DNA from: Octopus vulgaris | Taxonomy: Eukaryota | Direction: 5' to 3' | Assembly (NCBI GenBank): GCA_951406725.2 | Contig: OX597819.1 | Span: 100,130,001 to 100,194,000, forward strand | Length of the DNA: 64,000 nt | Part shown: in pieces, positions 2,520 through 58,008 of the stretch | Layout: every line of letters starts with the position of its first letter | Position numbering within the stretch: position 1 is the first letter of the stretch | The notes under the pieces: generated by a model | The model's input: the letters and a program-made list of their open reading frames with translations, nothing else | What the model was told of the DNA's origin: nothing | Database searches by the model: none | Program-made: the position numbers and the translations under genes

Positions 2520-3340
2520 TTATCCAGCTTCTTGGGCCATCACCTTTTATGTATCCCCAAAGGATCAGATTCTTACTCCCAAACTTTACTTTTTTTGTCA
2601 TGTAGCGAGGGTCATTTCGCTTTCCTGGAGTTATGCTGGCAAACGAGTCTTCATTCTGAGAAATTAGTTTTCATTCCTAAATGTGGGCGGTTTCTTACTC
2701 TTTTCCAGAGGATTTATCGTAGCAATGCATTGATCCATTTTCACAGTTGTCAGAGTCAACGACCATATCTCGGAACCGTTTCTAATTGCGTCCTCGGTCC
2801 GTCAGTGGTCTCCCTTCTCGGCTCTTCTACACATGCTGCCTCAGTGGTCTCCATTCTCAGCTCTTCTACACATACTGCCTCTCCAGATCTTGCTGCTTCT
2901 TTAGCACTTGCTACCTCATCACCTCTTTCTATTTCATCAAAGGTTTCTAAGGAAGTTACAAATAAAGGGGACATCTCTTTTGAGGTGAGTTGCTCGCAGG
3001 AGCAAAGATACATGTGGACTGCGGTGGGCGTGTCACTTAGCATCGAGAAAAATTCTGTCTCGTTAATCATCATCATAAGTCGCTTCAGAGACTGGTCAAT
3101 TTAAGTGCCTGGTTTGGGACAATGATTGGGACAAAATTATGAACAGGAGACTCTTTCTGAATTGCCGACTCAAGGTAACTGATGCCTTCTTCACCTCCAT
3201 CATAATTAAGCGTCAGTTCGTCGGACTTCACTCCAGGCCTTGTCTGACCAAAGGAGTATCTGCTCTTCTGTGTCCTGTGGAAACGTTGCATTCTATTGGT
3301 CAAGCGATGGAATGCGGTAGCTACTGTTGCACCATCTGCA
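2520..3340 (-). mobile_element. Possible Ty3/Gypsy pol remnant (RNase H end/linker)
   Basis: MQRFH..SRYSF..RPGVKSDELT loosely resembles the RxQRW..Y.F...RPG..N..AD.LS motif at the end of Gypsy RNase H. The match is weak. Confidence 0.3.
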
Positions 3341-3571
3341 AATATTTCTGGACACTACTATTACTATAACACAACTACTACCACCACTCTAACCTTACTG
3401 CTAATCTCACCCCACCACCATTCAGTGACTTAACCCATAATGATCACAACCAACACAATACTACTACCGTCACTCTATCATTAGAACCTCTCACACCACA
3501 AACATTATTCCTACCACTACCACTACAATTATCACCATCTCCATAACTATCATTATTATCACTATCCATAA

Positions 3572-4003
3572 AGGTGGCGAGCTGGTAGAATCGTTAGCGC
3601 ACCAGACGAAATGCTTAGCAGTATTTCGCCCGTCGCTACATTCTGAGTTCATATTCCGCCGAGGTCGACTTTGCCTTTCATCGTTTCGGGGTCGATTAAA
3701 TAAGTACCAGTTACGCACTGGGGTCGACATAATCGACTTAATCCTTCTGTCTGTCTTTGTTTGTCCCCTCTATGTTTATCCTCTTGTGGGCAATAAAGAA
3801 ATAAGAATCGTTAGAGCGCCAGACGAAATGCTTAGCAGTATTTCGCTCGTCGCTATGTTCTGAGTTCATATTCCGCCGAGGTCGACTTTGCCTTTCATCC
3901 TTTCTGGGTCGATAAATTGAGTACCAGTGAAACTCTGGGGATCGATGCAATCGACCTATCCCTTCCACCAAAATGGCTGCTCTTGTTGCAAATTTTGAAA
4001 CCA
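3572..4003 (+). mobile_element. tRNA-derived SINE family B, dimeric copy
   Basis: ggcgagctgg(t/c)agaatcgttagc head and core gtcgactttgcctttcatcctttcggggtcgataaa..gtaccag present twice. Same family recurs about 10 times in the window. Confidence 0.85.
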
Positions 4004-9223: not shown

Positions 9224-9294
<71 letters not shown>

Positions 9295-9319
9295 TTTATT
9301 TTAAGCAGCAGAAAATTCA

Positions 9320-9371
9320 ACAAAATCTGTTACTCTGAGTTTCTCGTTGCCGTTCATCAGACAGTTTTTGC
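9320..9371 (-). ncRNA. Minimal type I hammerhead ribozyme motif (PLE-1, sense copy)
   Basis: Reverse complement reads CUGU-CUGAUGA-A-CG(GCAA)CG-A-GAAA-CUCAGAG-UA-ACAG. Confidence 0.8.
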
Positions 9372-10387
9372 TAGAATGGAACATATATATTAATTCAATC
9401 TATACTCTTACAAACGCTACACCTTTAAAAAGAAATGGACTTGTTTGATTGGCCCTTTAGAAAAAACGGTCAATCTTCGAGCGATAAACAAAAAGGTCAA
9501 AAATATATGTATATATATATAAAAACTTATAAAATTATAAAATCCGAGGAAAAAACCGAGGAAAAAACCTATTGCCGTTAATGAAGACAGTACAAATTAA
9601 TGCATAGAAATTAAACCTGCTATAAATACTGCAATACATATTTATATTAAAATCCACATATATATATCAACATACACAAAAGGATGCGCGTAAATGCCAT
9701 ACATACATATACAGACGTATGAATATGAATCTAAATTATACACATAAAAGCATGTGTACATATATTCACGCAAACCGTCTCGCACGCAAGCTAAAATTCA
9801 TCTATGTAGCAATTCTCATATACTGAGCAAGGAGGGGGAACGAAAGAAAGGGAAAGAGAGAAAAAAGAAACGAAGGAGGGGTGGGGAAAACTTGTAGCGA
9901 TATTATTGACATCTATAGAGGCCAGTATACATACACAAGTTCGAATTGATACATATACATACCGTCGTGTGTATGTGTGCTTAAGCACACGCATACTTTC
10001 ACTTACACATACACAGATACGCATGCTTACAAATATATATGCTTTGCTATATACAAACTTATATAAACATTCTAAATTTGACAACATTGCTTTTTTTAAA
10101 AAAAACATTGCTTTTAAAAAATGGGTGCATTAATAAAAATATATACGAAAGACATATAAAATAAAATATAACATCCTATTTTGGGTCATTTATAAATAAT
10201 CAAGGTAATATAAATAATCAAGGTAATCTTATGCAATACAATAACATGAAAACAAAGTTTGTAGGTTTTTCCTAATATATATGTAGAAACAATAAGACTT
10301 TGCTATAGTTCCGTCGTAGCGCTCAAGAGTCAAAATCAAAATCAAAAAATCAAAATACAAAATATATACTCTATCCATATGGTATAT

Positions 10388-11047
10388 TTATATTCGACAT
10401 TTAAATTTAGCCGTGTGCCTACATAAGTTCATTAATTCACTTCTTTGATTCAAAGAATTATTGTCTTTGAATAATATATGCATTTTTTCTAATAAGCAGA
10501 GCCTGCACTTGAAATTATATTTGTAAGCTCCATGCCTGTATGGTGCCGCCCTGTCCAGAATGCTCCATGTCACGTTGAAAGGTGGGGCTTCCTTTTCTTT
10601 TAGTTCCCAGACATATTTTGCTAGGCTGGTTTTCTTTCTGTTCTCTGGGTATTTAAAAGAATTCTTATGAGAATAAAATCTTGTTTTAAATGAATTTTCT
10701 GAAGCCCCTGTGTATGTCTTGTATTCCGATGAGCCTTCCACTTGCACCTTGGCTCTATAAACTACTCCTTTCACTAGACATTTCCCTTCTAACGGACAGG
10801 AGCTTTCGTTTTTGAAATTACATTTCTTAATGGGCTCGGCACCATGTCTAATCTCAATTAGCTTCCTATTATGTTGGCTAATGTAAGAGGCGAAATTTCT
10901 GCAACAAGAATAGCTAACCTTCAGGGTTCTTCTATTAAATATTCTGTAGAATTTATGACCCTGCCTAAAATGCTTAGAGACTAATCTCAAAAATTCTTTA
11001 CCTATATTAGTCTTTACGGCCAAATTGAAAGCCGGGTTGAACCACAA
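10388..11047 (-). pseudogene. PLE C-terminal linker plus GIY-YIG endonuclease (RT portion missing)
   Basis: WFNP, C..C-PLEGKC linker, GVVY...YTG, FKTRFYSH, CRLCLLEK, LNQRSE..CRH. Homologous to the C-terminus of 49323-50780. Confidence 0.9.
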
Positions 11048-12038
11048 AACTTTCCTGGAACTAGGACCAGGAAAGTTTTGACTCTTGAGCGCTACGACGG
11101 AACTATAGCAAAGTCTTATTGTTTCTACATATATATTAGGAAAAACCTACAAACTTTGTTTTCATGTTATTGTATTGCATAAGATTACCTTGATTATTTA
11201 TATTACCTTGATTATTTATAAATGACCCAAAATAGGATGTTATATTTTATTTTATATGTCTTTCGTATATATTTTTATTAATGCACCCATTTTTAAAAGC
11301 AATGTTTTTTTTAAAAAAAGCAATGTTGTCAAATTTAGAATGTTTATATAAGTTTGTATATAGCAAAGCATATATATTTGTAAGCATGCGTATCTGTGTA
11401 TGTGTAAGTGAAAGTATGCGTGTGCTTAAGCACACATACACACGACGGTATGTATATGTATCAATTCGAACTTGTGTATGTATACTGGCCTCTATAGATG
11501 TCAATAATATCGCTACAAGTTTTCCCCACCCCTCCTTCGTTTCTTTTTTCTCTCTTTCCCTTTCTTTCGTTCCCCCTCCTTGCTCAGTATATGAGAATTG
11601 CTACATAGATGAATTTTAGCTTGCGTGCGAGACGGTTTGCGTGAATATATGTACACATGCTTTTATGTGTATAATTTAGATTCATATTCATACGTCTGTA
11701 TATGTATGTATGGCGTTTACGCGCATCCTTTTGTGTATGTTGATATATATATGTGGATTTTAATATAAATATGTATTGCAGTATTTATAGCAGGTTTAAT
11801 TTCTATGCATTAATTTGTACTGTCTTCATTAACGGCAATAGGTTTTTTCCTCGGTTTTTTCCTCGGATTTTATAATTTTATAAGTTTTTATATATATATA
11901 CATATATTTTTGACCTTTTTGTTTATCGCTCGAAGATTGACCGTTTTTTCTAAAGGGCCAATCAAACAAGTCCATTTCTTTTTAAAGGTGTAGCGTTTGT
12001 AAGAGTATAGATTGAATTAATATATATGTTCCATTCTA

Positions 12039-12090
12039 GCAAAAACTGTCTGATGAACGGCAACGAGAAACTCAGAGTAACAGATTTTGT
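12039..12090 (+). ncRNA. Minimal type I hammerhead ribozyme motif (PLE-1, inverted copy)
   Basis: ctgt ctgatga a cggcaacg a gaaa ctcagag ta acag. Stem I ctgt/acag, GNRA-capped short stem II, palindromic stem III. Predicted cut after 12079. Confidence 0.8.
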
Positions 12091-12185
12091 TGAATTTTCT
12101 GCTGCTTAAAATAAAGCATATTACTCTACCACTGGTATTTGAGTACTCTTTTTTCCACCTTGTTTCACATTTATGTGTTTACTCC

Positions 12186-12540
<355 letters not shown>

Positions 12541-14384: not shown

Positions 14385-14580
14385 AGGCAACGAACTGATA
14401 GAACCGTTGGAACAAAATGCATAGCGACATTTGTTCCAGATTATTTACATTCTGAGTTCAAACTCCACTGAGGTCACCTTTGCTTTTTATCCTTTCGGAG
14501 ACGATAAATTAAGTAAAGTTTGAGACTTAGGATCAATACAGTCGACTCGCAACTCCGTTTAAAATTATTAGAACTTGTCA
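14385..14580 (+). mobile_element. SINE family B, diverged copy
   Basis: ttctgagttcaaactccactgaggtcacctttgctttttatcctttcgg core. Confidence 0.7.
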
Positions 14581-16115: not shown

Positions 16116-16340
16116 GAGCTGGCAGACACGTTAGCGCGCCGGGCGAAATGCTTCGCGGTATTTCGTCTGTCGTTACGTTCTGAGTTCAAATTCCGCCGAG
16201 GTCAACTTTGCCTTTCATCCTTTCGTGGTCGATAAATAAAGTACCAGTTTCGCACTGGGGGCGATATAATCGACTCATCCCTTCGTCTGTCCTTGTTTGT
16301 CCCTTCTATGTTTAGCCCCTTCTGGGCAGTAAAGAAATAT
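16116..16340 (+). mobile_element. SINE family B
   Basis: Head, core and the tail gtttagccccttctgggcagtaaagaaata. Confidence 0.85.
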
Positions 16341-16779
16341 ATATTCTTTCTATAACATTTATGAGCTGGATTGACATGCCTAACTGGTTGGAAGTGTGAT
16401 CAGAAATGATGAGTATGGAATCAGCCGGCTGGTATGTACAGAAGACATGATATGATGCTGATCGTCACAAAGTAACCTTTAGCATTGACTACATAGGTTC
16501 ACTGGAATTATAATCTATACTGCGAAATCTGAGACATCAGTCCTCTCGAAAATCTCTGGCCAGTGTGTTTTGCACGTTAATAAAAAAATATACTAAAACA
16601 GATGAAGGTCATCACTAGAAAGGCGCTGGCTAAATAAGCAAAATTCGGTGTCTTCGATGACTAGTGTGTTCCTGTAGTTGTGGTCATTAATCTTTAGTGA
16701 GCAAAAGAGTTAGATCACAAGCTACCGGTATTGGGTCAACCAAAAGAGTCATTTCAGTATCATTATTCAATGGATGGAG

Positions 16780-16981
16780 ACGGCGAGCGGGTAGGGTCGT
16801 TAGCATGCCGAGCGAAATACTTCGCGGTATTTCGCCCGTTGCTCGGTTCTGAGTTCAAAATCCTCCGAGGTCGACCTTGCCTTTCACCCTTTCGAGGTCG
16901 ATAAATGAAGTATCAATTGCGTAATAGGGTAGATCTAATCTCCCTCCCTCAAAACTTCAGACCTTGTGCCTATATCAGAAA
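16780..16981 (+). mobile_element. SINE family B followed by (ATT)n
   Basis: Head and core with the alternative tail ccctcaaaacttcagaccttgtgccta. Confidence 0.8.
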
Positions 16982-21902: not shown

Positions 21903-22393
<491 letters not shown>

Positions 22394-27257: not shown

Positions 27258-30165
<2,908 letters not shown>

Positions 30166-30744: not shown

Positions 30745-31443
30745 CACATGCGCAGTTAGTCGGTTGCTTCCTGTTGAGCTAGAGTGGACGTGAGTAACAA
30801 GCTCCTTCCAACTAAAGAAAAAAGACCAAAAACGGAAAGTTGTCGAGGTAAGTGATTTTGTTTATTGTGAGTTGGGCATAATTTATTGCGTGCCAATTAT
30901 TATTTCAGTAGGTTGTGTCCAACTCTGAGACAATTTCGCCTGCGCTAGGCGGCTGCCGTTTTTGTGTTCATTGAAAAAAAAAAAAAAAAAAAAACAGTGG
31001 AGGGGCGTATCCTCAGAATTCAATACAGTTACTGTTAAAATCACCGTTGGCGGTAGCCAGTGCTGTGTTTGGATTTGTTGAATTTATTCCCTTGTCAGAG
31101 TACTTCGCAAGAAAAGTATAAAAATAAGCCACTATTGGATTACCTTTCGGACCTTTTTTGTGGAGGTTGTGTTGCAGTTGCGGTGTTCCAGGTTCAACCC
31201 AGGCCGGGAGTACCGCAAGGCCAGAATATTTTTGCTGTGTTTTTTCTGTTTATTAACTTTCTTTTGAACTTCATTTACCCCCCCCCCCTTTTGTTTTTTC
31301 TTTATTGCGACTTTCCGTTAATTTCTTCCCTTCTGTTGTGCTTTCTCCTTTTTGTTTTTTCAAAAATCTATCAAATTTATTTAGACTTTTGAACTTTTTT
31401 CTTCCTGCTTTTGAGTCTAATTTGAATATATTTTTTAAAAAAC

Positions 31444-32688
31444 ATGGCAATGAAAAATAACAAAGTTTTGGAGTGGGAAATCATACCACCCAAAAAGTGG
31501 TTGAAGGACCGTGAAGATAGGACGGTGGTGTTGAGAACCTACTCCAAGGCACTTGACACCATCGCCCTATTCGAAAAGACGGCAATTGAGGAGGAGTTGG
31601 AGGAGTATTTGCCAACAATTAAATTCATTTCCAGGGGTGTCAAATATGGAACAGTGTGGTTGCTGTTTGACACCCCTGAAGAGGCTTGCAAATTTGCTAG
31701 CGAACCCTTGGAGGGTAAGGAAATCTTATTCCTGCCCACTTACAAAAAAAAGAAATTGATGAAAGCTTGGATCTGCGGACTGCCATCCGACATAGAACCC
31801 GAGTGGATAGAGGAGACTATCCGCCGGGGTCTGGGTGACAGCGAAACTAAGCTCCTCAATGTAAAAGTTCTTCCTGCGGCTGCTTGGGTTGGCTCGAAAG
31901 CAGTTTTGACCCTGTGGACCCAATCAGCCAATCTGGTTTTTCCAGATTTTTTGAAAATGGCCGGGTGCAGGTACCCGGTGATGCTTGAGGGTCGCCCCCC
32001 TAAGTGTCATCGGTGCTTGGAGTCCGGCCACATAAAGAAGAACTGTCCTCGGGAACAAAATAGGATCCCGGAACAGTTAAGTAAAACCCCTCTAGAAGAG
32101 GGAACGATAACGGCCGAGAAAGCAGAGGACTCCTCAAGCAGAGGCCGAAAGAGGAAGGTGAGCAACAATGGGTGCTCACCAAAGGATAATAGGGACGAGG
32201 AGAGGAGGGCGAATCTTCCAGCCACGGAGGAGACGCACCCTCCCTCAGTTGAAAAGGGAAAAAAAAAGAAAAAGAGGAAGAAAAAGGGGACGTTGCCGGC
32301 TGTCAGTGTGGCACCGGAATGTCGCGGAACTACGTCGGTTGGGGTTGTGCCACCGACAAGAGAAGGAATACCGTTGGCGGAAACTGTTCCGCCAACGAAA
32401 GAACTGAATGTATTGGTCCTCTTCTATAGAGGAGGAGAAATTGAAAAAGTGATGGAAGAGCACTACAAGGGAGCACCTTTAGCCTTCACACAGGACCCCG
32501 AATGGCCTCCGCAGGTAGCTGTGGAGGCCGTGGCGTTCGACGTGACGCTAGGGCTAAAGGAGCTCAATGAAGACTATAACTTGGTCCCGGGCGACGCGAA
32601 CTCGGAACTTGACTACGTTCTGAGGGAGGCGTGGTTGATGGTGGAGGGCGCGGGCACAAGCTATTTCGAGGACGATATGTATTATTAG
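31444..32688 (+). CDS. 414 aa Gag-like/ORF1 protein with CCHC zinc knuckle and basic tract
   Basis: Uninterrupted ATG ORF with CHRCLESGHIKKNC, an upstream ICGLP segment like L1/Tx1 ORF1 RRM regions, and KKKKKRKKK. Confidence 0.8.
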   Translation: MAMKNNKVLEWEIIPPKKWLKDREDRTVVLRTYSKALDTIALFEKTAIEEELEEYLPTIKFISRGVKYGTVWLLFDTPEEACKFASEPLEGKEILFLPTYKKKKLMKAWICGLPSDIEPEWIEETIRRGLGDSETKLLNVKVLPAAAWVGSKAVLTLWTQSANLVFPDFLKMAGCRYPVMLEGRPPKCHRCLESGHIKKNCPREQNRIPEQLSKTPLEEGTITAEKAEDSSSRGRKRKVSNNGCSPKDNRDEERRANLPATEETHPPSVEKGKKKKKRKKKGTLPAVSVAPECRGTTSVGVVPPTREGIPLAETVPPTKELNVLVLFYRGGEIEKVMEEHYKGAPLAFTQDPEWPPQVAVEAVAFDVTLGLKELNEDYNLVPGDANSELDYVLREAWLMVEGAGTSYFEDDMYY

Positions 32689-36544: not shown

Positions 36545-37435
36545 ATGTCCAGAACCTGGAAACGTGACGAACTGGCGTGGTTCCTGCGAGGATGGCAATG
36601 CGCTGACGGAGAAAATCCAAATAATATAATTACGGCCGCGCTGAAGAACAACGGATACAAAAGGACGTCAGCTCAAATAGAGCGGAAGAAGCAAGAATTT
36701 ATACGCTCCTACGCACTTGTCAGATCGCACATTAACACGCTGGATGCCATTTTTGACAGCGAAAAACGCGAACAAAGTAAAGATGGCAAGGATAGAGACG
36801 CGGGCGCTGATGAGGAGGGTCACCCCCACCTGGTAGACGCCCAGGAAGAAAACTCCTGTGAGAGGCCTGCCCGGAGATGAACCCAGGTGCGGATGCTCCT
36901 ACCAGCACCAAAAGCCATGGACATGGAGATGAAAAAACCAAAAAAGGAAGAAAAACTGAAGCTAAAACTCAGACAAAGCCAAGGGGCAAGGCAGCCAGGG
37001 ATAGAGGCAAACCTAACTATCCATATGCCAAAAAGGATGGAAACAAGCAGCGCACACGGGTATATAAGTTCTACCTGAAAGGTGCCTGCCGGCATGGAGA
37101 GGAAGGTGCAGGCTGCCGCTTTGCACATCCGGGACCCTGCCACAGAAACCAACCACCGAAAGGAAATGGGATGGACCACGCATCACCTGCCCCAAAACGG
37201 AGGTACGCAGATGTGGTGCGTGCCACAAACCACCAACGTGTTGTTGAAAGGGAAGCTGCTGAGCAGGAATCTTTTTTTGTGCATGGCACAAAAGATTGTA
37301 CAGCAACTAACCTGGCTCCATCAGGCTCAGGCTCGCAGATGGAATTGCCCACAGTTCACGAGACAGCCACAGCAGATGGACCCAGGGTGGACACCACCGG
37401 CAACAGCATACACCTCACCTCGATGCTCCTACTGA
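36545..37435 (+). pseudogene. LINE ORF1 (frameshifted): Myb/SANT-like N-terminus plus CCCH-like zinc finger
   Basis: RTWKRDELAWFLRGW..IITAALKNNGYKRTSAQIERK resembles a trihelix/Myb-like domain. YKFYLKGACRHGEEGAGCRFAHP is CCCH-like with the first Cys replaced. Confidence 0.6.
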
Positions 37436-40382
37436 ACATCAGAGGACTACTAACACACAGTAACAGGACAAAAGTCCCGTTCCTGAGAGACTTTGCCGCA
37501 TGCAATCAAGCCTTATGCATAGCACTCACAGAAACGCATCTGAAACCGGACATAGCAGATGCGGAATTACACATACCACAGTATGTTGTACTACGGACCG
37601 ACAGAAAAGAAAGGAGTCATGGAGGAGTTGCTATGTACATCCGTGGGGACCTCACACCCCAGGTCCTTTTGTCATACTCAAACTCGGTGTGTGACACACT
37701 AATTGTACACATAAGGCAACTTGATGTAGTTGTGTGTGCTACATATCGCCCTCCAGATGCCCCAAGTCATATGGGCAAGTTTGAGGACTGCCTTTTAAAA
37801 ATAGAAGAAGTTCTAATCACATTAGAACAACACATAAGTGTACTTCTTATGGGAGATTTCAATCTACCCAATGTCAGATGGCCCGAGGGCCTTCCTCTCT
37901 CAGGAATGACAAGATGTGAACGAGGACAGGCGAGGTCCCTCCTGAACCTCATCAACACCCTATACATGGAGCAAGTAATACTCCAACCAACCAGAGCAGG
38001 TAACACACTGGATCTCTGCTTCACAAATAATATGGATCTCATCCATAATGTGAAAGTGACACCGACACTACTCTCGGATCACAACATGGTAGAGCTGACC
38101 ATGTACGGGCCAAAAGAGAGCACGGACATGCAGCCTACAAGAAACCCTCAGAATCTTTCCAGCTTGAACTTCAATAAGGCAAACTGGAAACAAACTGAGA
38201 AAGAGATCCTCAAACAAAACTGACCTGAATGTCTCTCCTCGCCGGACATCGACATGATACTTCAACAATTCATGTCTGTAATGCAAGCCATATGCTACAA
38301 ATGTGTCCCAGAGAGAAAGGCCTCTGTACACAAGAACAAAATCCCCAGAGAGAGGAAAATTTTAATGAGACGGCGTACAAAAATTTCAAATCGCCTAAAC
38401 AAACAAATTGAAAGCAGTGAAAAGTCCCGCCTGAAAATAAAACTGTTGGAAATTGAAAATTGTCTGCAACTCTCCCATGAGAAGGAAAGAGCAGACAAAG
38501 AAGCCTGGCTATAGACAACATAAAAACTAACCCCAGAGCTTTCTACAGGTATGCCAAAGAAGCAGCTACGGTGCACTGTAGGATAGGGCCACTCCTTGAA
38601 AAGGATGGCACACTCACAGGAAAACCAATGAGGGTAAGTGAAATACTGAATGAACAATTCAAGAGTGTTTTCACTCCACCCCTTGGGCATTTCCAAATCA
38701 GCAATCCAACTGACTTCTTTACCACTGCAGATATAGAATCAGAAGCGGCGACGATAAATTACATCGATATAAAGGAAGACGATGTAATAAAGGCTATAGA
38801 TGAAATGAAAACAGACTCAGCTATTGGCCCCGATGGATTCCCGGCAATCCTCCTAAAAGTATGTAAGAGAGTCCTAGCAAGATCACTGCAGTTCCTCTTT
38901 CAGAGCTTCCTTGCAGCAGGCAAACTTCCAAGAAAACTGAAGGAAGGTAAAATATGCCCTATACATAAAGGAGGTAGCAGAGCGGAGGCCAAGAACTACA
39001 GACCTATCTCTCTGACCTCACACATCAGCAAGGTCATGGAACGAATAGTCAGAAGGAAACTAATCACCTTCCTTGAAGAAAATGACTTGCTGCCTGACAC
39101 CCAACATGGTTTCCGACCAGGAAGAAGCTGCTTAACTCAGCTCCTGCAGCACTATGACTGGGTGCTGAAACAACTGCTCAACCACTCAAATGTGGAAGTC
39201 ATTTATCTCGACTTCGCAAAGGCCTTCGATAAAGTCGATCATGGAATGATATGTCACAAGCTGCGTGATCTTGGCATAGTTGGAAAACTAGGAGAATGGC
39301 TTCATGACTTTCTGAAGAATAGAAGTCAGGTGGTAGCAGCCAATGAGGCCACTTCCATTAGCACGCAAATAGTGAGCGGTGTTCCGCAGGGCACTGTTTT
39401 GGGACCACTACTGTTCATAATGGCCCTCTCAGACATGCCCTCAGCCACGCAGAGAGCCACGATCACAAGTTATGCAGATGATACAAAAGTTTCACAGGCA
39501 ATACAGAACCCTGAAGACACTAAGCACCTGCAATGTGAGCTGGACGAAATATACAAGTGGGCTGAAAAGAATAGCATGCAGTTCAATGCTGAAAAGTTTC
39601 AAGCTTTATACTATCAGCATGCAAAACTGAATGCAATACCCAATGAATACACTGGACCCGGAGGGATTGCAATCCCAGAGGCACAATCAGTGCGTGACCT
39701 GGGTATTCACATGAGTGATGACGCGACCTTTCATGTACATGTTGCTAAACTGACAATGAAATGTAGACGGCTGGCTGGATGGATTCTTAGAACCGTTAGA
39801 ACAAGAGAACAAGAAACCATGATGGTCTTCTGGAAGACACTTGTCCTAAGCCACTTTGACTATTGCTCTCAGCTATGGTCACCATCCAGTGTCAAGTTGA
39901 TCACAGAAATTGAGGCGATCCAACGAAGCTACACGAAGAAGATAGCCTCTGTGAAGCATATGAGCTACTGGGAGAGACTCAAGAGATTAAAGCTCTATTC
40001 CCTGGAGCGTAGGCGAGAAAGATATGCCATAATATATATCTGGAAGATCCTGGAAGGTCTTGTCCCAGACTTTGGCATCGAGAGTCACACAAATGCCAGA
40101 ACCGGACGCCACTGCGTAGTACCAAGGACTCCAAATTTGCCATCAAGATGTAGGACAATATATTGTGATAGCCTGGGCTTCAGAGGCCCACGGCTCTTCA
40201 ATATCCTCCCGAAGAACCTGAGGGACCTGCATGGTGTAGATGCGGATGTCTTTAAAGTAAGACTGGATCTCTTCCTGTCAGGTGTCCCGGATGAACCAAC
40301 TTCACGGCAGGAGGTGCAGATGAGGGCAGCTGCATCGAACTCTCTCATGCATCAGATGGCGTTTGCTAAAAAGCATCCGTGA
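37339..40382 (+). pseudogene. LINE ORF2 (endonuclease and reverse transcriptase), one stop and one frameshift
   Basis: Pieces 36877-38223, 38254-38514 and 38571-40382 join into a canonical ORF2. Confidence 0.9.
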
Positions 40383-45067: not shown

Positions 45068-46013
45068 CATCCAACACCGTATACTGCAACAGCAGCTATA
45101 CTATAGATTCATAACATTTCCTATAACATGTTAATAACTCTGCGTTATATGAAATAATATTCATGAATGATGTAACAAAATTATGTACAAGACTTGCAAC
45201 AGGAACGGCAATATCAACAGCAACAACAACAACAATAACAAAACAACAACAACTATAGTTAGAATAGCCCTAGCGATAACAACATCAAGTTTAACACAAG
45301 AATAAATTTTTAAAAAGCACATAATAGAATAATACAAACAAATACAAGTACAACAACAAAAAACAACACTATCAGTCAATCACAAGAACATAACAACAGC
45401 TACAAGAACGACTGCAACTACAAGAACACCAATAATAGGGAAAATACCAACACTAACACTAATACCAAAAGGAATATAACAGCAATTCATATAGAACATG
45501 TGTTATCGCTATTTTATATCAAATGCTATAACCCTACTTCATTTTATGATGTAGTGAAACTCGTTACAACCTGCAGCTGCTCTCTTAACATAATCAATGG
45601 TCTTATCAAAACTCAAACATGCATTTTTCAAACACCATTTCTCCAAGAATTATGTAGCTATGGAGTACTTTTTTATTCTCTTGTTATGGTGGTGGGTACT
45701 GTTGTTCTTATCGCTGTAGTTTTCTTCATATTGTTGTTATTTAGTTCTTGTTGTACGATGATATTTTGCACTTGCTATTGTGATCTTATAGCTATTGGAT
45801 GATTGGGGCATCATATATGCATTCATACATACATGCATACATATATACATACATACATACATACATACATACATACATACATACATACATACATACATAC
45901 ATACATGCATACATATATACCTTCATGCATATATATATATATATATATATATACATACAGGCACGTGCATGCATACACAATTATAAAAACATTCATTCAC
46001 ATATGTACGTATA

Positions 46014-46044
<31 letters not shown>

Positions 46045-46142
46045 TGATAAAACGGTAAGATAACAAAAGAAAGAAAGAGACCTCAATATTATGTAAATAG
46101 AGGAAATTTATCTATACAATATGTTACATTACTCGGTAGTCA

Positions 46143-46205
46143 AGATAAAACTCTGAGTTTCAGATGCCGAAGTGGAAATCCACAACACCATCTCTTCGGT
46201 TATCT
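46143..46205 (-). ncRNA. Hammerhead-like motif, PLE-2 inverted copy
   Basis: Reverse complement of 50976-51038. Confidence 0.65.
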
Positions 46206-46400
46206 GGCTATTTGAAAACGTTATGAAAAAATACCGTTAAAAATGAAGGGAAATTACTCTGTTATAACTCTGCTTTGCCTGCGTACTTATACATCGCTCG
46301 CATTTTTCGTCATAAAAATTATATAAAAATACATAAAAAATATATAAAAATATATAAAAATATATAAAATCTTCTTGGGACATAACACAGAAAGCATGTT

Positions 46401-48390
46401 CTATCCGTTTTCTTTAGGGGACCAAAAACGTAACAGAAATTTAGTCACATGTGGGCATGATCCGAAAAGTTCTGTCCTTGTATTTAGACATGTGGTAGGG
46501 TCTAAGCTGCTTTTCCAGATAAGCCATCTCTCCATGTCGCATAAACCGCACCTTCCGCTGCCGTTAGTATAGGGCTTACATCTGGCCAAAATCTTCCATT
46601 GTATGTTATAATCGACACCTTTATCTCTTAAAGACCAAATATGATTGGATAATTGTGTCGCTTTTCTTTTGTTCCAGTGCCTAAAGCTCAAAGTGTGGTT
46701 ATTGAACCTGGCCTTGAAATTACCCTCTGTCAGGCCCACGTATTTCTTCGTCAAAACGGTGTCTTTAGTGGTTATAGAGTTTACGGTAGCCTCATATATG
46801 ATGGTCTTGGACATGCAAGCTCCATTTAGCGGGCACAATTCTTTATTCCTGCATGAACAGCTGTTTTCTTCTTGTGTTTTTTGTATGTTATGATTGATTA
46901 TGTTTTTAAAATTGGTAGTTGAACTAAAACTAATTTTTAAATTGTGTCTATTGAAGAGTTTCCTATAAGCATGGTTAACTGGAAAATGTCTATCTATCAG
47001 TGCTAGGAAATATTTACCTATATTGAAGGCCACCTCGGGTGAGTAAGGGGGCGTAAACCAGATGACCTTCCTATTTCTATTATTCCTTTTCCTTATTGTT
47101 GGGCTGGTGATAGGTGTATATTTTATTTTTCGCTAAAACCACTATCTTTTAAAGCTTTATTATAAACTGGGGCAACGCTATTGAAGATGTCCTCATTAGA
47201 TGAGAGGCTAGAAATCCTCTTACTAATATTTTTAACTAAATTTTTGAATACTATAGGGGGATGGCATGAACCTACATTAATATAACTTAGTCTATCATTG
47301 GGCTTCCTATAAGGCTTATAAATATTATTATTAAGATCTAAGGAAACGTCTAAGAAATTGACAACCGTCAGGTTAGTGTCTATAGTTATACTAAGTCCGA
47401 AGTGTTTCATTAACTGGATAATATCCTTCCTAAAACGATCTTGTGCTGGTCCATTTGTATTAGCTGTTAAGGCGAGGGCATCATCTTTGTAGATGGCGAA
47501 ATGTACGTTAGGGAATGTCTTACTGAAGGTATCTAGGAGAAAGAGTCCAATTAGATCACAGATGCCTGCCCCATCATATGAACCCATGCTCACATCGAAA
47601 GCGCCCTCCGTGTCGGTGTTTTTTACCCACTTTGCATTCTCACTGAAAAGTAATGTCTTTCTAGCATGGAAGATTATATCCTTATCATTGGTACTAATTT
47701 CTATGAAGTCACTAGCGAAGATTAGGGCTTTATCTAGCAGTTCTTTAGAGATAGAGGCATAAAAATCAACAATATCGAATTGTGTAAACCTCGCTTTTTT
47801 CTTATTCTTAATAGCTTTAAACCAGTCTACGACTTCTATACTATTGGACCATTGCACTAGCCTAGTATCGGTCTTAATTTTCGTATTTATTTTATCTAAA
47901 ATTTCTTTGCTAATAATCCCTAGTTCTGACTTGGCTGGGTTGATAAGCCTACATTTAGGATTGGAAAGGAAGTTTTCTTTGTGGTCTTTAATAGTAATAA
48001 AGGCCTCTTTTTGGGGAGGGTTTCTATTTTTTTATCTAATTTAAGTTTAGCGGCGATGACGCTAGCTTCTTTATTAATTTCGTTATATGTCTGTGCCCTA
48101 GCTTTAGTATAATTATTAATGATGCTGTTGTGTAAGAGTTGTGTGTATTTGCTGTTATCTACCAGGTATAAGTTCTTGGTTTTATCCGAAAAAAGTGCTT
48201 TTTTCTTGGAGCTTTTTATATGATCAATATCTTTCTTCAATTTATGTTGGAAATTGTTAAAAGACTTACGAAACTTTATTTTGCTCATGATCTTCAGCAG
48301 GTCCGCTTCGAAATCTTCCAAGCCTTTAATCCTAGGAGGGAATTTTTTGGATTTTATCCGATAGCAAATGTTTTCCTTGGTGTTCGCTTC
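46401..48390 (-). pseudogene. Inverted, 5'-truncated copy of the PLE-2 RT/GIY-YIG ORF
   Basis: ORFs 47920-48420, 47123-47857 and 46401-47033 translate identically to the plus copy. One extra frameshift near 47126. Confidence 0.9.
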
Positions 48391-48449
48391 AACCGAAGAG
48401 ATGGTGTTGTGGATTTCCACTTCGGCATCTGAAACTCAGAGTTTTATCT
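48391..48449 (+). ncRNA. Hammerhead-like motif lacking most of the 5' strand of stem I (at the inversion junction)
   Basis: aa ccgaaga gatg..catc t gaaa ctcagag tt ttatct starts exactly at the junction. Confidence 0.55.
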
Positions 48450-48654
48450 TGACTACCGAGTAATGTAACATATTGTATAGATAAATTTCCTCTATTTACA
48501 TAATATTGAGGTCTCTTTCTTTCTTTTGTTATCTTACCGTTTTATCAATAAATCACCTCCCGGACGACGTTATTCTCAACTAAGAGCTAATACGACCTTT
48601 TTGGGATTATCGCCTAACATCGGTTGAGGACTCTCACAAACAAAAGAATCTAAT

Positions 48655-50780
48655 ATGGACGCATATCACATAGATTATTCTATGAAAAATATACCGATCC
48701 CATCAAAGGATTTTTACTCTAAGAAACTTCTGCAAAAAATTACTGATGTAATTAAGCGTATGAGATGGAAGGCTTTCTTTTTTGACACAGAAGCGAACAC
48801 CAAGGAAAACATTTGCTATCGGATAAAATCCAAAAAATTCCCTCCTAGGATTAAAGGCTTGGAAGATTTCGAAGCGGACCTGCTGAAGATCATGAGCAAA
48901 ATAAAGTTTCGTAAGTCTTTTAACAATTTCCAACATAAATTGAAGAAAGATATTGATCATATAAAAAGCTCCAAGAAAAAAGCACTTTTTTCGGATAAAA
49001 CCAAGAACTTATACCTGGTAGATAACAGCAAATACACACAACTCTTACACAACAGCATCATTAATAATTATACTAAAGCTAGGGCACAGACATATAACGA
49101 AATTAATAAAGAAGCTAGCGTCATCGCCGCTAAACTTAAATTAGATAAAAAAATAGAAACCCTCCCCAAAAAGAGGCCTTTATTACTATTAAAGACCACA
49201 AAGAAAACTTCCTTTCCAATCCTAAATGTAGGCTTATCAACCCAGCCAAGTCAGAACTAGGGATTATTAGCAAAGAAATTTTAGATAAAATAAATACGAA
49301 AATTAAGACCGATACTAGGCTAGTGCAATGGTCCAATAGTATAGAAGTCGTAGACTGGTTTAAAGCTATTAAGAATAAGAAAAAAGCGAGGTTTACACAA
49401 TTCGATATTGTTGATTTTTATGCCTCTATCTCTAAAGAACTGCTAGATAAAGCCCTAATCTTCGCTAGTGACTTCATAGAAATTAGTACCAATGATAAGG
49501 ATATAATCTTCCATGCTAGAAAGACATTACTTTTCAGTGAGAATGCAAAGTGGGTAAAAAACACCGACACGGAGGGCGCTTTCGATGTGAGCATGGGTTC
49601 ATATGATGGGGCAGGCATCTGTGATCTAATTGGACTCTTTCTCCTAGATACCTTCAGTAAGACATTCCCTAACGTACATTTCGCCATCTACAAAGATGAT
49701 GCCCTCGCCTTAACAGCTAATACAAATGGACCAGCACAAGATCGTTTTAGGAAGGATATTATCCAGTTAATGAAACACTTCGGACTTAGTATAACTATAG
49801 ACACTAACCTGACGGTTGTCAATTTCTTAGACGTTTCCTTAGATCTTAATAATAATATTTATAAGCCTTATAGGAAGCCCAATGATAGACTAAGTTATAT
49901 TAATGTAGGTTCATGCCATCCCCCTATAGTATTCAAAAATTTAGTTAAAAATATTAGTAAGAGGATTTCTAGCCTCTCATCTAATGAGGACATCTTCAAT
50001 AGCGTTGCCCCAGTTTATAATAAAGCTTTAAAAGATAGTGGTTTTAGCGAAAAAATAAAATATACACCTATCACCAGCCCAACAATAAGGAAAAGGAATA
50101 ATAGAAATAGGAAGGTCATCTGGTTTACGCCCCCTTACTCACCCGAGGTGGCCTTCAATATAGGTAAATATTTCCTAGCACTGATAGATAGACATTTTCC
50201 AGTTAACCATGCTTATAGGAAACTCTTCAATAGACACAATTTAAAAATTAGTTTTAGTTCAACTACCAATTTTAAAAACATAATCAATCATAACATACAA
50301 AAAACACAAGAAGAAAACAGCTGTTCATGCAGGAATAAAGAATTGTGCCCGCTAAATGGAGCTTGCATGTCCAAGACCATCATATATGAGGCTACCGTAA
50401 ACTCTATAACCACTAAAGACACCGTTTTGACGAAGAAATACGTGGGCCTGACAGAGGGTAATTTCAAGGCCAGGTTCAATAACCACACTTTGAGCTTTAG
50501 GCACTGGAACAAAAGAAAAGCGACACAATTATCCAATCATATTTGGTCTTTAAGAGATAAAGGTGTCGATTATAACATACAATGGAAGATTTTGGCCAGA
50601 TGTAAGCCCTATACTAACGGCAGCGGAAGGTGCGGTTTATGCGACATGGAGAGATGGCTTATCTGGAAAAGCAGCTTAGACCCTACCACATGTCTAAATA
50701 CAAGGACAGAACTTTTCGGATCATGCCCACATGTGACTAAATTTCTGTTACGTTTTTGGTCCCCTAAAGAAAACGGATAG
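48655..50780 (+). CDS. PLE polyprotein: reverse transcriptase plus C-terminal GIY-YIG endonuclease (one frameshift near 49170)
   Basis: YSMKNIPIPS, KRMRWKA, FDIVDFYASI, SMGSYDG, YKDD, NFLDV, WFTPPYS, CSCR..CPLNGAC, IIY..YVG, CGLC, LNTRTE..CPH. Restoring one A gives KKEAFITIKDHKENF. Possibly Nematis-type (from memory, not tested). Confidence 0.9.
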
Positions 50781-50975
50781 AACATGCTTTCTGTGTTATG
50801 TCCCAAGAAGATTTTATATATTTTTATATATTTTTATATATTTTTTATGTATTTTTATATAATTTTTATGACGAAAAATGCGAGCGATGTATAAGTACGC
50901 AGGCAAAGCAGAGTTATAACAGAGTAATTTCCCTTCATTTTTAACGGTATTTTTTCATAACGTTTTCAAATAGCC

Positions 50976-51038
50976 AGATAACCGAAGAGATGGTGTTGTG
51001 GATTTCCACTTCGGCATCTGAAACTCAGAGTTTTATCT
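50976..51038 (+). ncRNA. Hammerhead-like motif (variant core CCGAAGA, extended stem II)
   Basis: agataa ccgaaga gatg-gtgtt-gtgga tt tccac-ttcgg-catc t gaaa ctcagag tt ttatct. Stem I is agataa/ttatct and stem III is the same as in PLE-1. Predicted cut after 51032. Confidence 0.65.
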
Positions 51039-51267
51039 TGACTACCGAGTAATGTAACATATTGTATAGATATATATATATATATATATATATAAATATA
51101 TACATGTATGTATGCATATATATCCACACAGTTGATAAACTGTACTACAGAGCATAAGGTTATTCACACACACACACCACACACGCACTCACACACATAC
51201 ATATATATATACATACATATATACATATATATACATATATATATACATATATACATGTTTATATACA

Positions 51268-52200: not shown

Positions 52201-52372
52201 TTGCTTTTTTTCTCCACCCATCTTTTTTTCTTTTACTTTTCAGACATTGCTTTTTCTCTCTCAAATTTCACAAGATTATCAAGGTGGCTAAATAAGCTAG
52301 TAAAATGTTTCATCTCGCTTCTTTTATATGCTGTAAAATTCAGCATCCTGAGATTAAGATCAACAGCAATGG

Positions 52373-52520
52373 CCGCACCCTTCGCACTCAACGTCAAAAC
52401 CAGAAGTAGAAAGATATACCTTAGGTTAGTTGACAAGCACTTCACACAGCCACGTATACGTACGATTGTTTAACAGACACAACAGGGTCTCTTTCAGCTA
52501 TGCAACAAGCGTTAAGAAAA
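52373..52520 (+). mobile_element. Short decayed PLE fragment
   Basis: PFALNVKT..YLRLVDKHF..LFNRHN resembles PAFNLAVKTNIGKEFLRLVSKHF..IFNRR of PLE-1. Confidence 0.6.
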
Positions 52521-54497
52521 TATTAGTGAAGAGCTCTAGACCACGCGCAGAGGCAAGATAATGATGTTGGGTTAAAAATGAGTGCTCAATGGGGCATCGA
52601 TACAACTGCAAAGCCATGGTCTATGAGGCTAAAGTGGTGCCAGGGAGGAATGGCAGCTGCAGCAGCGTTGGCAGCAGCAACAGAACCAACAGTAACACAA
52701 CGAAAACAGTAGCAACAGCAACGTAACCAACAACAACAGCAACGGAACCAAAAACACTTCCGCCAGTAACAGCAACAGCGACAACAGTCGTAGCAGATGC
52801 GGCGATAGTGGCGGTGGCTGTAGTGGCGAAGGCGCTGTAACACCACCAGCAGCGCATTAGGAAGTAGTGACTGTTACGGTTGCACAAGTGGAGCTACAAT
52901 AACAACAGCATCACCAACAGTGCGTCTGACCGTAGTATCAACAGCGGCAACTGTTGCCGCAAAAACAGCAACAACTGCGGCACTAGAATCCCGTCCAGCA
53001 AAAACAGCAACAACGGCAGCGATGCCTGCAGCAACAATAAAAGCAGTTGCTCCTGCAATGCACTGGTCAATAGCAACAGCAACGGCTGCGATAATGACAG
53101 CAACAACAGCTGCAACACCACCATTATAAGGACACAGACACGGAAATATTTGAGGCTACAGAGGGTCCTTTTTAAGCAATGATATAGCAATCACAAACCC
53201 TCTTTTTGGATACCAGAGAAGCGCAAACCTACATCCTAGGCCAGCTACATGTGGTGTTTAAAAGAGGAAGTATATTATACATAATAATTAAACGGAAGTT
53301 CTTAGAAAAACAGGGGCTGTAGTTCAACAGCATCAAACGATATAAACTTTGCTTGGCCGCAAGTGCAAGAATTATAAAAAAAACTAGCTTGTCTCGGGAA
53401 ACTTCTTAAACTAAAAAAAAATATTTTGTTGGTGGCCTCATCAGTGGAAATTCGTTTTAGGAACATGGAATTCCCGATTACCGACACAGGAAAAGTAATC
53501 GACTATACACTGAGCAATCTTTAGATGCAGCTGGAACCGATTTATTATAAGACAGTAGAAGTTCATTTCGGGATTCTTTGTTTACAACCATCACTGACCA
53601 AACGTTTTCCTCCCTCTAGTTGTAGACAAGTTAAGTGCCTCCGGCCAACGAGTCTAATCAGCACCGTGCATTCCTTAATCACTCCCTCTCTACTGGCAGG
53701 CAGCAACCTTTTTGTCACTATAAAACAAATTTCGCTATCACTACAAGTACTACTGTCTCTAATTACCTGTCGGGCAAACGAATAAATATATGTAAATAAT
53801 ATTTCTTCCTTCTTGGTGTTGATCATTCGATGTTCACTGGTTACTCTGACGTTGGCACAATAATTCACTTGCCCAAACTGAATTGCTGGAGACATTTCAT
53901 TTTTTCCAGAAAAATGTTTTCAAAAAGTTATAAAGGTTTAACGTTCGATCATTTTCACCCAGTCAGGAAACAGTATTTGGAAGCAGTGATTTTGTGCGTG
54001 ACTGAACATTTTGTCGTCAACATCCTGAAAATGCTTGCATTTTTTATATCTTCCGTGAATCTTGCACGGGTCCTGCATGCTACAGATTTATAATTTACTA
54101 ATAATAATATAATAGTAAACGGCGAAATTTTTTAGTTCTCTTCCTGACTATCTTTTGGGGATCTTTCATGTTTGGTTGCCTGCTCAATTTTCAGTTCGAA
54201 TTGATTTCATATTCAGTGTAATGATACACTTTTATAGGCTAATTAATCAAGTGAAAGTAATTTTCGCTATAAAACAATAAATAAAGACTTATTAGTAATT
54301 AAGGCTTGAAAATTTTGGTAAATTTAGTCAATCGTAAGCCACAGACATATTTATGGTTTTCTCTTTTAAATTAACATAAACATTTATTTACAGGTGAGAA
54401 AATTACCGAATACCTTTCGTGCTAAAAATTATAGCTAAAGAAGATTTATTTACATAAAAGAAAATTACCGGTGATGTAAAACGTTGTTTACAAACAT

Positions 54498-55276
54498 TCT
54501 TTTCTTCTCTAGGCACAAGGCCCGAAATTTTGCAGGAGGGGTCCACTCGATTAGATCGACCCCCAGTACGCAACTTGTACTTAATTTATCCACCCTGTAA
54601 GGATGAAAGGCAAAGTCGATCTCGGCGGAATTTGAAGCCAGAACGTAAAGAGAGACAATAATGATTCTCCCAATAATAATGAAGATGATGATGATGATGA
54701 TGATGAGGATGATGATGATGATTATTATAATTTCCCTGTCATTGGCTGAAAAAATCTGGGAATGGGTAAAATTGTTATAGAAAACACCACTACTTAAGTA
54801 CTTTTTATGTTACTTAGAGCGAAAATAAAAGAAAGTAGTGAACGGATGAGCCATGATAAGTATTCTTTTGTAGGAACAAGGCTCGAAGTTTCTGGTGAGG
54901 GGGCCATTCGATTAGATCGACCGCAGTACGCAACTGGTACTTAATTTATCTTCTCCGAAAGGCAAAGTCAGCCTCGGCGGAGTTTGAACTCAGAACGTAG
55001 ACAGAGGAAATACCTATTTCTATTTCTTTACTACCCACAAGGGGCTAAACACAGAGAGGACAAACAAGGACAGTCAGACAGATTAAGTCGATTATATCGA
55101 CCCAAGTACGTAACTGGTACTTATTTAATTGACCCCGAAAGGATGAAAAGCAAAGTCGACCTCGGTGGAATTTGAACTCAGATCGTAACGGCAGACGAAA
55201 TACCTATTTCTTTACTACCCACAAGGGGCTAAACACAGAGAGGACAAATAAGGACAGACAAACCGGATTAAGTCGA
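54498..55276 (-). mobile_element. SINE family B copies (54498-54655, and a multimeric copy at 54865-55276)
   Basis: Reverse-complement core with both tail modules repeated. Confidence 0.8.
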
Positions 55277-57616: not shown

Positions 57617-58008
57617 CGGCGAGCTGGCAGAATCGTTAGCGCGCCGGGCGAAATGCTTAGCGGTATTTCGTCTGCCGCTACGTTCTGAGTTCAAATTCCG
57701 CCCAAGTCGACTTTGCCTTTCATCCTTTCGGGGTCGATAAATAAGTACCAGTTACGCACTGGAGTCGATATAATCGACTTAATCCGTTTGTCTGTCCTTG
57801 TTTGTCCTCTCTGTGTTTAGCCCCTTGTGGGTAGTATAGAAATAGGTATTTCGTATGTCTTTACGTTCTGAGTTCAAATTCCACCGAGGTCGACTTTGCC
57901 TTTCATCCTTTCGGATTCGATAAATTAAGTACCAGTTGCGTACTGAGGTCAATCCAATCGACTGCTCCTCCCCCAAAATTTCGGGCCTTTTGCCTGGAGT
58001 AGAAAAGT
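57617..58008 (+). mobile_element. SINE family B, dimeric copy
   Basis: Head-core-tail1 followed by core-tail2, as at 3572-4003. Confidence 0.88.

Follow-up and report, generated by a model that had tools for sequence, protein, structure and literature searches.

Paired arms of Octopus vulgaris Penelope-like elements end at two fixed sites, probably through priming by both target strands on one linear, uncleaved RNA

The window, the whole stretch of 64,000 nucleotides of Octopus vulgaris DNA analysed here, holds at 46042-51072 a head-to-head double copy of a Penelope-like element (PLE), which we call PLE-2. It lies in (TA)n, a repeat that would mask any target-site duplication, and the 3' ends of its two arms face outward. 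A second insertion of the same layout, PLE-1, lies further upstream. Signed positions are given throughout in nucleotides from the predicted hammerhead cut, and the features are as follows.

46010-46041: left (TA)n target flank
46042-48390, minus strand: left arm of PLE-2, 5'-truncated, beginning at +347 (the equivalent of 48790) and ending at site B, +107
46042-46108, minus strand: tail of about 67 nt (+41 to +107), with which the left arm ends and the right arm does not
46143-46205, minus strand: predicted type I hammerhead of the left arm (descriptor match)
48391-51072, plus strand: right arm of PLE-2, one 2589-nt unit with 53 nt upstream and 40 nt downstream, ending at site A
48391-48449, plus strand: first hammerhead copy of the right arm, predicted cut after 48443, lacking most of the stem I 5' strand and giving no descriptor match
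48474-48550, plus strand: stretch copied by read-through, spanning site A (+31 to +40), the tail and then site B (+104 to +107)
48655-50780, plus strand: Hydra-type ORF for reverse transcriptase (RT) and, C-terminally, a GIY-YIG nuclease, with RWK, DKT, YKDD, CxCX5C, CxxC and CxH motifs
50976-51038, plus strand: complete predicted type I hammerhead, predicted cut after 51032, with stem I AGAUAA/UUAUCU, core CCGAAGA...GAAA and a GUU triplet
51073-51123: right (TA)n target flank
9294-12188: PLE-1, a further Hydra-type family arranged in the same way; the end lies at +37 in the minus arm and at +108/109 in the plus arm

An earlier, sequence-only reading had described a 2589-nt monomer between predicted cuts at 48443 and 51032, copied with 53 nt upstream and 40 nt downstream. 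These limits are exact, as given by a perfect 93-nt direct repeat (48391-48483 equals 50980-51072, measured by script); they describe only the right arm of a head-to-head insertion, one arm of each element having been considered. The short-ended arm of this insertion extends about 400 nt further 5' than the long-ended one.

On its protein motifs, and not by a tree, PLE-2 is assigned to the Hydra clade of PLEs. RWK and DKT (in place of DKG) are present in both families, as are the CxCX5C linker, the C-terminal GIY-YIG, CxxC and CxH; CCHH is absent from the nuclease core, the ORF translation has no Cys between the IIY and YVG motifs, and the Pfam match to GIY-YIG, at E 0.015, lies below the cut-off. 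The 2589-nt unit with its single ORF falls within the size of Hydra elements, below 3 kb. In both PLE-2 arms the ORF is frameshifted at a C run near 49163, a minority variant found in 21/91 segment matches against 68/91 for the other variant (overlapping loci counted twice), and the window copy was therefore probably mobilised in trans. PLE-2 is a young, abundant family, with 3617 exact genome-wide matches to its hammerhead 29-mer. PLE-1 has a 3365-nt unit, and its core sequence gives 3796 exact matches; the proteins of the two families are 43% and 45% identical and carry the same Hydra motifs, which refutes the earlier description of PLE-1 as unrelated. The window element is a new family of a described clade with a known layout, and in itself ordinary.

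The surroundings hold further repeats. Inspection by eye finds at 52322-52560 a decayed fragment resembling the C-terminal part of a Hydra-type ORF, and further ORFs that look like those of retroelements (a fragment of an RT, an ORF with a zinc knuckle, and a LINE-type endonuclease and RT pair) at 27689-28405 (minus), 31426-32688 (plus) and 36862-40382 (plus). A dispersed repeat of about 170-200 nt, probably a SINE, occurs in both orientations at 3579-3747, 14444-14547, 16116-16953, 22049-22364, 54500-55263 and 57621-57972.

Hammerhead identity refers here to a hand-written type I descriptor, not to Rfam, which called the hammerhead motif of neither family in the window and two narrow stretches. 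The descriptor matches four times in the window, in both arms of both PLEs, and never in 50 local shuffles. The predicted hammerhead contains the type I core (C-U/C-G-A-N-G-A, GAAA, NUH and three stems), with N7 varying, in the non-canonical form CCGAAGA, GUU and an extra U, and one older variant has both sides of a stem I pair changed. Folding of the hammerhead and tail regions is not better than that of shuffles (z -0.62, -0.54 and -0.17). The PLE-2 tail repeats the stem I strands, AGAUAA at +37 (48480-48485) and UUAUCU at +87 (48530-48535), and these repeats could compete with folding of the predicted ribozyme.

We compared the ends of many copies in three samples: 67 clusters (68 loci) from the first 100 of 3617 PLE-2 matches, 77 loci selected for read-through past +108 from 100 listed of 151 matches, and, among the first 100 of 3796 PLE-1 matches, 54 loci. 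PLE-2 arms end at +31 to +40 (site A) or at +104 to +107 (site B); PLE-1 arms end at +37 or at +108/109 (12188 for the partner arm in the window). Among 156 adjacent minus/plus arm pairs typed by script, 136 combine one A end with one B end (41/46, 52/62 and 43/48 by sample), none is A/A, two are B/B and 18 have at least one other end. Inspection reassigned L074, L105 and L293 as A/B and left a single, internally complex B/B locus (L276). By script and inspection together, and over both families, A/B accounts for 139/140 typed pairs and short/short for none; if ends were independent, such pairing would have a probability of about 1e-40 (computed with n=139). The remaining 16 pairs comprise inversions inside the insertion, jump structures and ends at intermediate positions (+60 in L143, +68 in L169, +70 in L258), and five arrays split across two loci, which lie outside the pair count, are A/B by eye as well. 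Single-armed copies occur for both end types. Genome-wide, exact matches fall from 2814 (+63 to +96) to 151 (+108 to +137) in PLE-2, and from 3796 (core) to 67 (+110 to +138) in PLE-1, counts that also depend on polymorphism.

Hence the A/B pairing is a near-strict rule, in place of an "optional tail". The distance from hammerhead to 3' junction, which the sequence-only reading had proposed to plot across both families, is not scattered; it takes two values, one per arm. A start at a fixed distance of about 40 nt past the ribozyme thus holds good as to the fixed distance, and the PLE-1 long arm does join (TA)n beyond the cut, at +37, as had been claimed. This is one of two sites, the partner arms ending at +107 and +108/109, and a single +40 start site is rejected.

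What sets these sites appears to be position. In PLE-2, ATA steps overlap (TA)n at +36, +40 and +107, as the proposed AT microhomologies would have it, and the ATA at +59 and +62 are not used as end points. In PLE-1, 54/55 short ends (hand count) lie at +37 without any overlap, the C that follows being missing from the junction, and site B has at most one base in common with the target. Microhomology at the join is therefore a feature of PLE-2 and not of PLE-1 site A, annealing to (TA)n is not needed as such, and priming by microhomology alone is rejected. The positional starts of both families agree with the non-homologous internal starts described in PMC11167929.

Near these sites lie CUC...GAG hairpins with 13-15-nt loops, placed 7-10 nt past both PLE-1 start sites and PLE-2 site A (12124-12145; +118 to +136 in L172; 48490-48510) and not clear at PLE-2 site B. 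Hammerhead stem III likewise reads CUC-A-GAG, and the hairpins are possible protein-binding marks. AATAAA overlaps PLE-2 site B (48546-48551) and lies directly 5' of PLE-1 site A (12110-12115), which in AT-rich sequence may be chance.

The two arms of an insertion tend to carry the same haplotype, which supports a single template for both. Opposite arms are discordant at a common polymorphism in 12/45 informative insertions, compared with 3047/3434 random pairs, a likeness that could alternatively reflect gene conversion or assembly. Their 5' ends lie within 60 nt of each other in 20/41 pairs (shuffle mean 10) and 26/43 pairs (shuffle mean 15). This coincidence is weak once short copies are left out (4/18, P 0.03; 3/17, P 0.05; 3/37, P 0.16), and in most cases the long arms stop at different points. 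In several insertions the B arm is nothing more than the tail and has its stop near site A (L065, L077, L253, L294, L304), as if a trailing enzyme had met a leading one. Many PLE-1 mini-palindromes meet at a self-complementary CTAG at about -43 (L149, L160, L166, L182, L184).

That the template must span the cut site, as had been argued from the window, is confirmed, and the junctions favour an uncleaved linear RNA over the other form that had been offered, a circle defined by the ribozyme. In 20/41 and 26/43 pairs (hand count), from two samples selected because they contain the hammerhead core, both arms come to a stop no more than 120 nt upstream of the cut. Cleaved monomers should leave 5' ends heaped up at the cut (+1). 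Second-pass ends viewed by eye show no such heap; they range between about -120 and +107, and of some 20 ends 4 fall 7 nt or less from the cut. The right arm of the window, from -52 to +40, had been taken as more than one turn of the template; it starts inside the zone between -120 and the cut and so fits a full transcript from the upstream pLTR that begins just before the first hammerhead.

A class of jump loci concerns the template's 5' end. In these, sequence runs to +197...+317 and is followed by a 5' piece starting between -86 and +32. We chose 13 such loci by eye among 18, excluding five that are joined to other sequence. The join carries an untemplated G in 8/13 (L081, L261, L264, L265, L273, L280, L284, L289), lacks it in 4/13 (L241, L251, L275, L288) and is ambiguous in 1/13 (L269), an excess of G with P between 0.006 (at 25% G) and 0.0006; in 3/8 G junctions the next base is also G, which makes slippage possible. 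All eight G joins begin at a pyrimidine-purine step (five distinct sites, P 0.0006), with starts at -83 three times and at -60 twice, in differing subfamily backgrounds, and in L261, L264 and L280 the G follows additional A's. The same jump is crossed by both arms in L269 and L280, and in L251, L273 and L289 the first runs of both arms end within a base of each other. In PLE-1 one comparable jump was found among 30 read-through loci (L316), with microhomology and no G. An untemplated G marks the RNA cap, and a pyrimidine-purine start is the initiator rule of Pol II. Such a G has been taken as a transcript start before (PMC3510499). The simplest reading of the jumps is a short capped RNA, with an uncut hammerhead and both start sites, that would be copied to its cap and then again from its 3' end. 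Since the 5' ends pile up just upstream of the hammerhead and G is present at 8/13 joins, the template of the short copies looks linear, capped and uncleaved.

Several of these loci are short tandems, of about 270-400 nt, in which each unit has one hammerhead (L251, L261, L265, L269 at 2996-3830, L273, L275, L280, L284, L289); their joins differ at nearly every locus, often carry G and do not lie at the cut site. Four presumed-RNA contig sets from four studies cover the unit; as the contigs carry no information on ends, strand or level, and the join of a circle reads the same as a genomic tandem join, they do not count as evidence here. One contig (X14, matching window positions 48689 to 50949) joins +246 to -83 with an intervening G, identically to L265, and is probably a transcript or DNA of an L265-like copy.

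Altogether, we consider it probable that the arms end at two fixed sites as both nicked (TA)n strands prime RT on one linear, likely capped, uncleaved RNA, a mechanism read wholly from genomic junctions. The endonuclease of the element would nick both target strands; one RT would start at A and a second at B, placed by protein and not by base pairing, and both would copy toward the 5' end, the trailing RT displacing the leading one or stalling at it. The two cDNA ends would then be joined in the middle, leaving the roughly 70 nt between A and B as a one-sided tail. Transcripts would begin just upstream of the hammerhead, so that the numerous mini-palindromes would result from priming near the 5' end, and the arm of one unit plus 53 nt seen in the window from priming on the downstream copy in a read-through transcript. 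At the cap, RT may jump to an RNA 3' end and continue, by which a linear RNA would be copied for more than one turn; seamless multi-unit arrays would come from array read-through or from transfer between repeated ends, with a circle also possible.

We put forward a wider proposal only tentatively, giving it somewhat less than an even chance. Starting at two fixed sites, a pair of PLE RTs would copy a single capped, uncleaved RNA and jump at the cap to the 3' end of the same RNA, which would make a linear RNA act as a circle. On short pLTR transcripts this may yield the 270-400-nt tandems with one hammerhead per unit, and it could represent both the birth step of non-LTR retrozymes and a cleavage-free route to PLE tandems.

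Two other origins have been weighed for copies longer than one unit. A 2589-nt circle, cut by the hammerhead, ligated and copied for more than one turn, is unlikely as the main template, although circles have been shown for the related small retrozymes (PMC7229834). It would readily give seamless arrays, which reach four full units and part of a fifth (L129/L130), and several insertions in which both arms exceed one unit; it would also fit the concordance of array units in haplotype in 24/32 informative arrays and the rare SNPs common to units in 13/38. Yet a circle has no 5' end at which about half of the two-armed copies could stop just upstream of the hammerhead, the jump joins carry G at initiator-like steps, and 8/32 arrays have discordant haplotypes, among them L100/L101, whose haplotypes differ at seven sites. 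The ends do not pile up at the cut, the predicted core is non-canonical, and PMC11167929 reports that hammerhead mutants inserted normally and that no RNA reads ended at the cut. The mixture of family haplotypes in the L100/L101 and L129/L130 arrays may stem from template switching, gene conversion or assembly error, and a further array, L106, is probably two insertions. It is quite unlikely, too, that two-site priming is real while multi-unit copies merely reflect read-through of tandem genomic masters and short joins are products of repair or assembly. Tandem genomic copies do exist (the 151 exact matches past +108 and arrays of up to four full units), heterogeneous masters would suit mixed-haplotype arrays, and partial tandems drive transcription in Drosophila Penelope (PMC2377424). 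Repair, however, leaves unexplained the G at 8/13 joins, all at pyrimidine-purine steps, and the same join in both arms of L280; read-through alone should only shorten arrays, and no unit-specific variant common in register to both arms was seen among the arrays listed. For the long copies, seamless arrays could arise by read-through, by transfer between repeated transcript ends or from a circle, which the data do not separate, and a circle is possible there given arrays of up to four units.

The inverted arm itself has been attributed to self-priming, and the one-sided tail to endonuclease resolution (PMC3846280; PMC8557442). We regard fold-back or self-priming of one cDNA, or an antisense template, as highly doubtful here, even though the arms have a common haplotype and a small palindrome is the meeting point of many short copies (PLE-1, about -43). 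Fold-back requires one arm to lie inside the other, and it is disfavoured by the finding that either arm may reach further 5' (14 vs 14 in sample 1, 9 vs 10 in PLE-1), by up to kilobases; in the window it is the short-ended arm that reaches about 400 nt beyond its partner. Moreover, the +37 end of PLE-1 is precise to a single base. Priming by both target strands on one linear, uncleaved RNA is the more probable account.

Most of this pattern has been described before. Publications exist on starts inside an RNA left uncleaved, on a tail at one side only and on the idea of a circle (PMC11167929, PMC8557442, PMC4209133). The overall inference of the sequence-only reading, of a circularised or uncleaved tandem RNA, was half right and largely anticipated, the circle being the less likely of its two options. 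What would be new is the end-to-end jump marked by the cap G, by which retrozyme-sized tandems would be made. Both PMC8557442 and PMC11167929 treat as unsettled how PLEs come by their tandem and inverted copies and by the tail at one side. Here, two young families with thousands of near-identical copies supply precise start sites along with candidate starts of transcription and jump joins, all of which are testable in the existing in vitro system. In a literature search with most subscription papers outside its reach, nothing relevant turned up on twin priming in PLEs, on template jumping in PLEs or on PLE circles tested with RNase R. In the twin priming of LINE-1, each of the two target ends serves as a primer on the RNA of the element, and an inverted 5' part results, as here. 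The LINE-1 pieces do not overlap and their second site varies, whereas here the same sequence is copied from two fixed sites.

The closest relatives are the Hydra-clade elements of Craig et al. 2021 (PMC8557442), which have in common with the present families the RWK, DKT, CxCX5C, CxxC and CxH motifs, the C-terminal GIY-YIG and the hammerhead, along with (TA)n targets, partial tandems, an inverted 5'-truncated copy and a tail at one end. They differ in that their tail measures 30-40 nt, compared with about 70 nt here, and is described as occurring "often", whereas here it is found on exactly one arm in 139/140 typed pairs; PLE-1, at 3365 nt, also exceeds the usual size of less than 3 kb. Poseidon_Ac, a green anole PLE of another clade, has been studied in vitro (Frangieh et al. 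2024, PMC11167929): both strands are nicked and extended, uncleaved RNA is used, two internal starts downstream of the hammerhead bound a tail with no homology needed, and the protein is predicted to be a dimer. Our arithmetic on the numbers in PMC11167929 places one start region of Poseidon_Ac between about +85 and +92 from the cut; that paper saw no difference in start site between the strands, which speaks against the strand-to-site pairing found here, and its accessible text presents no cap or jump analysis. A circular template for PLEs was proposed in PMC4209133, and circles have been shown for small retrozymes and not for full PLEs (PMC4209133, PMC7229834). Retrozymes have been argued to be PLE derivatives (bioRxiv 10.64898/2026.07.22.740005), in an account whose accessible part names no step for the origin of the tandems. 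Like the short copies described here, they carry one type I hammerhead per unit and occur in copies longer than a unit (PMC4209133, PMC7229834, bioRxiv 10.64898/2026.07.22.740005), and the sizes match, with jump units of about 270-400 nt here and retrozymes of about 170-400 nt.
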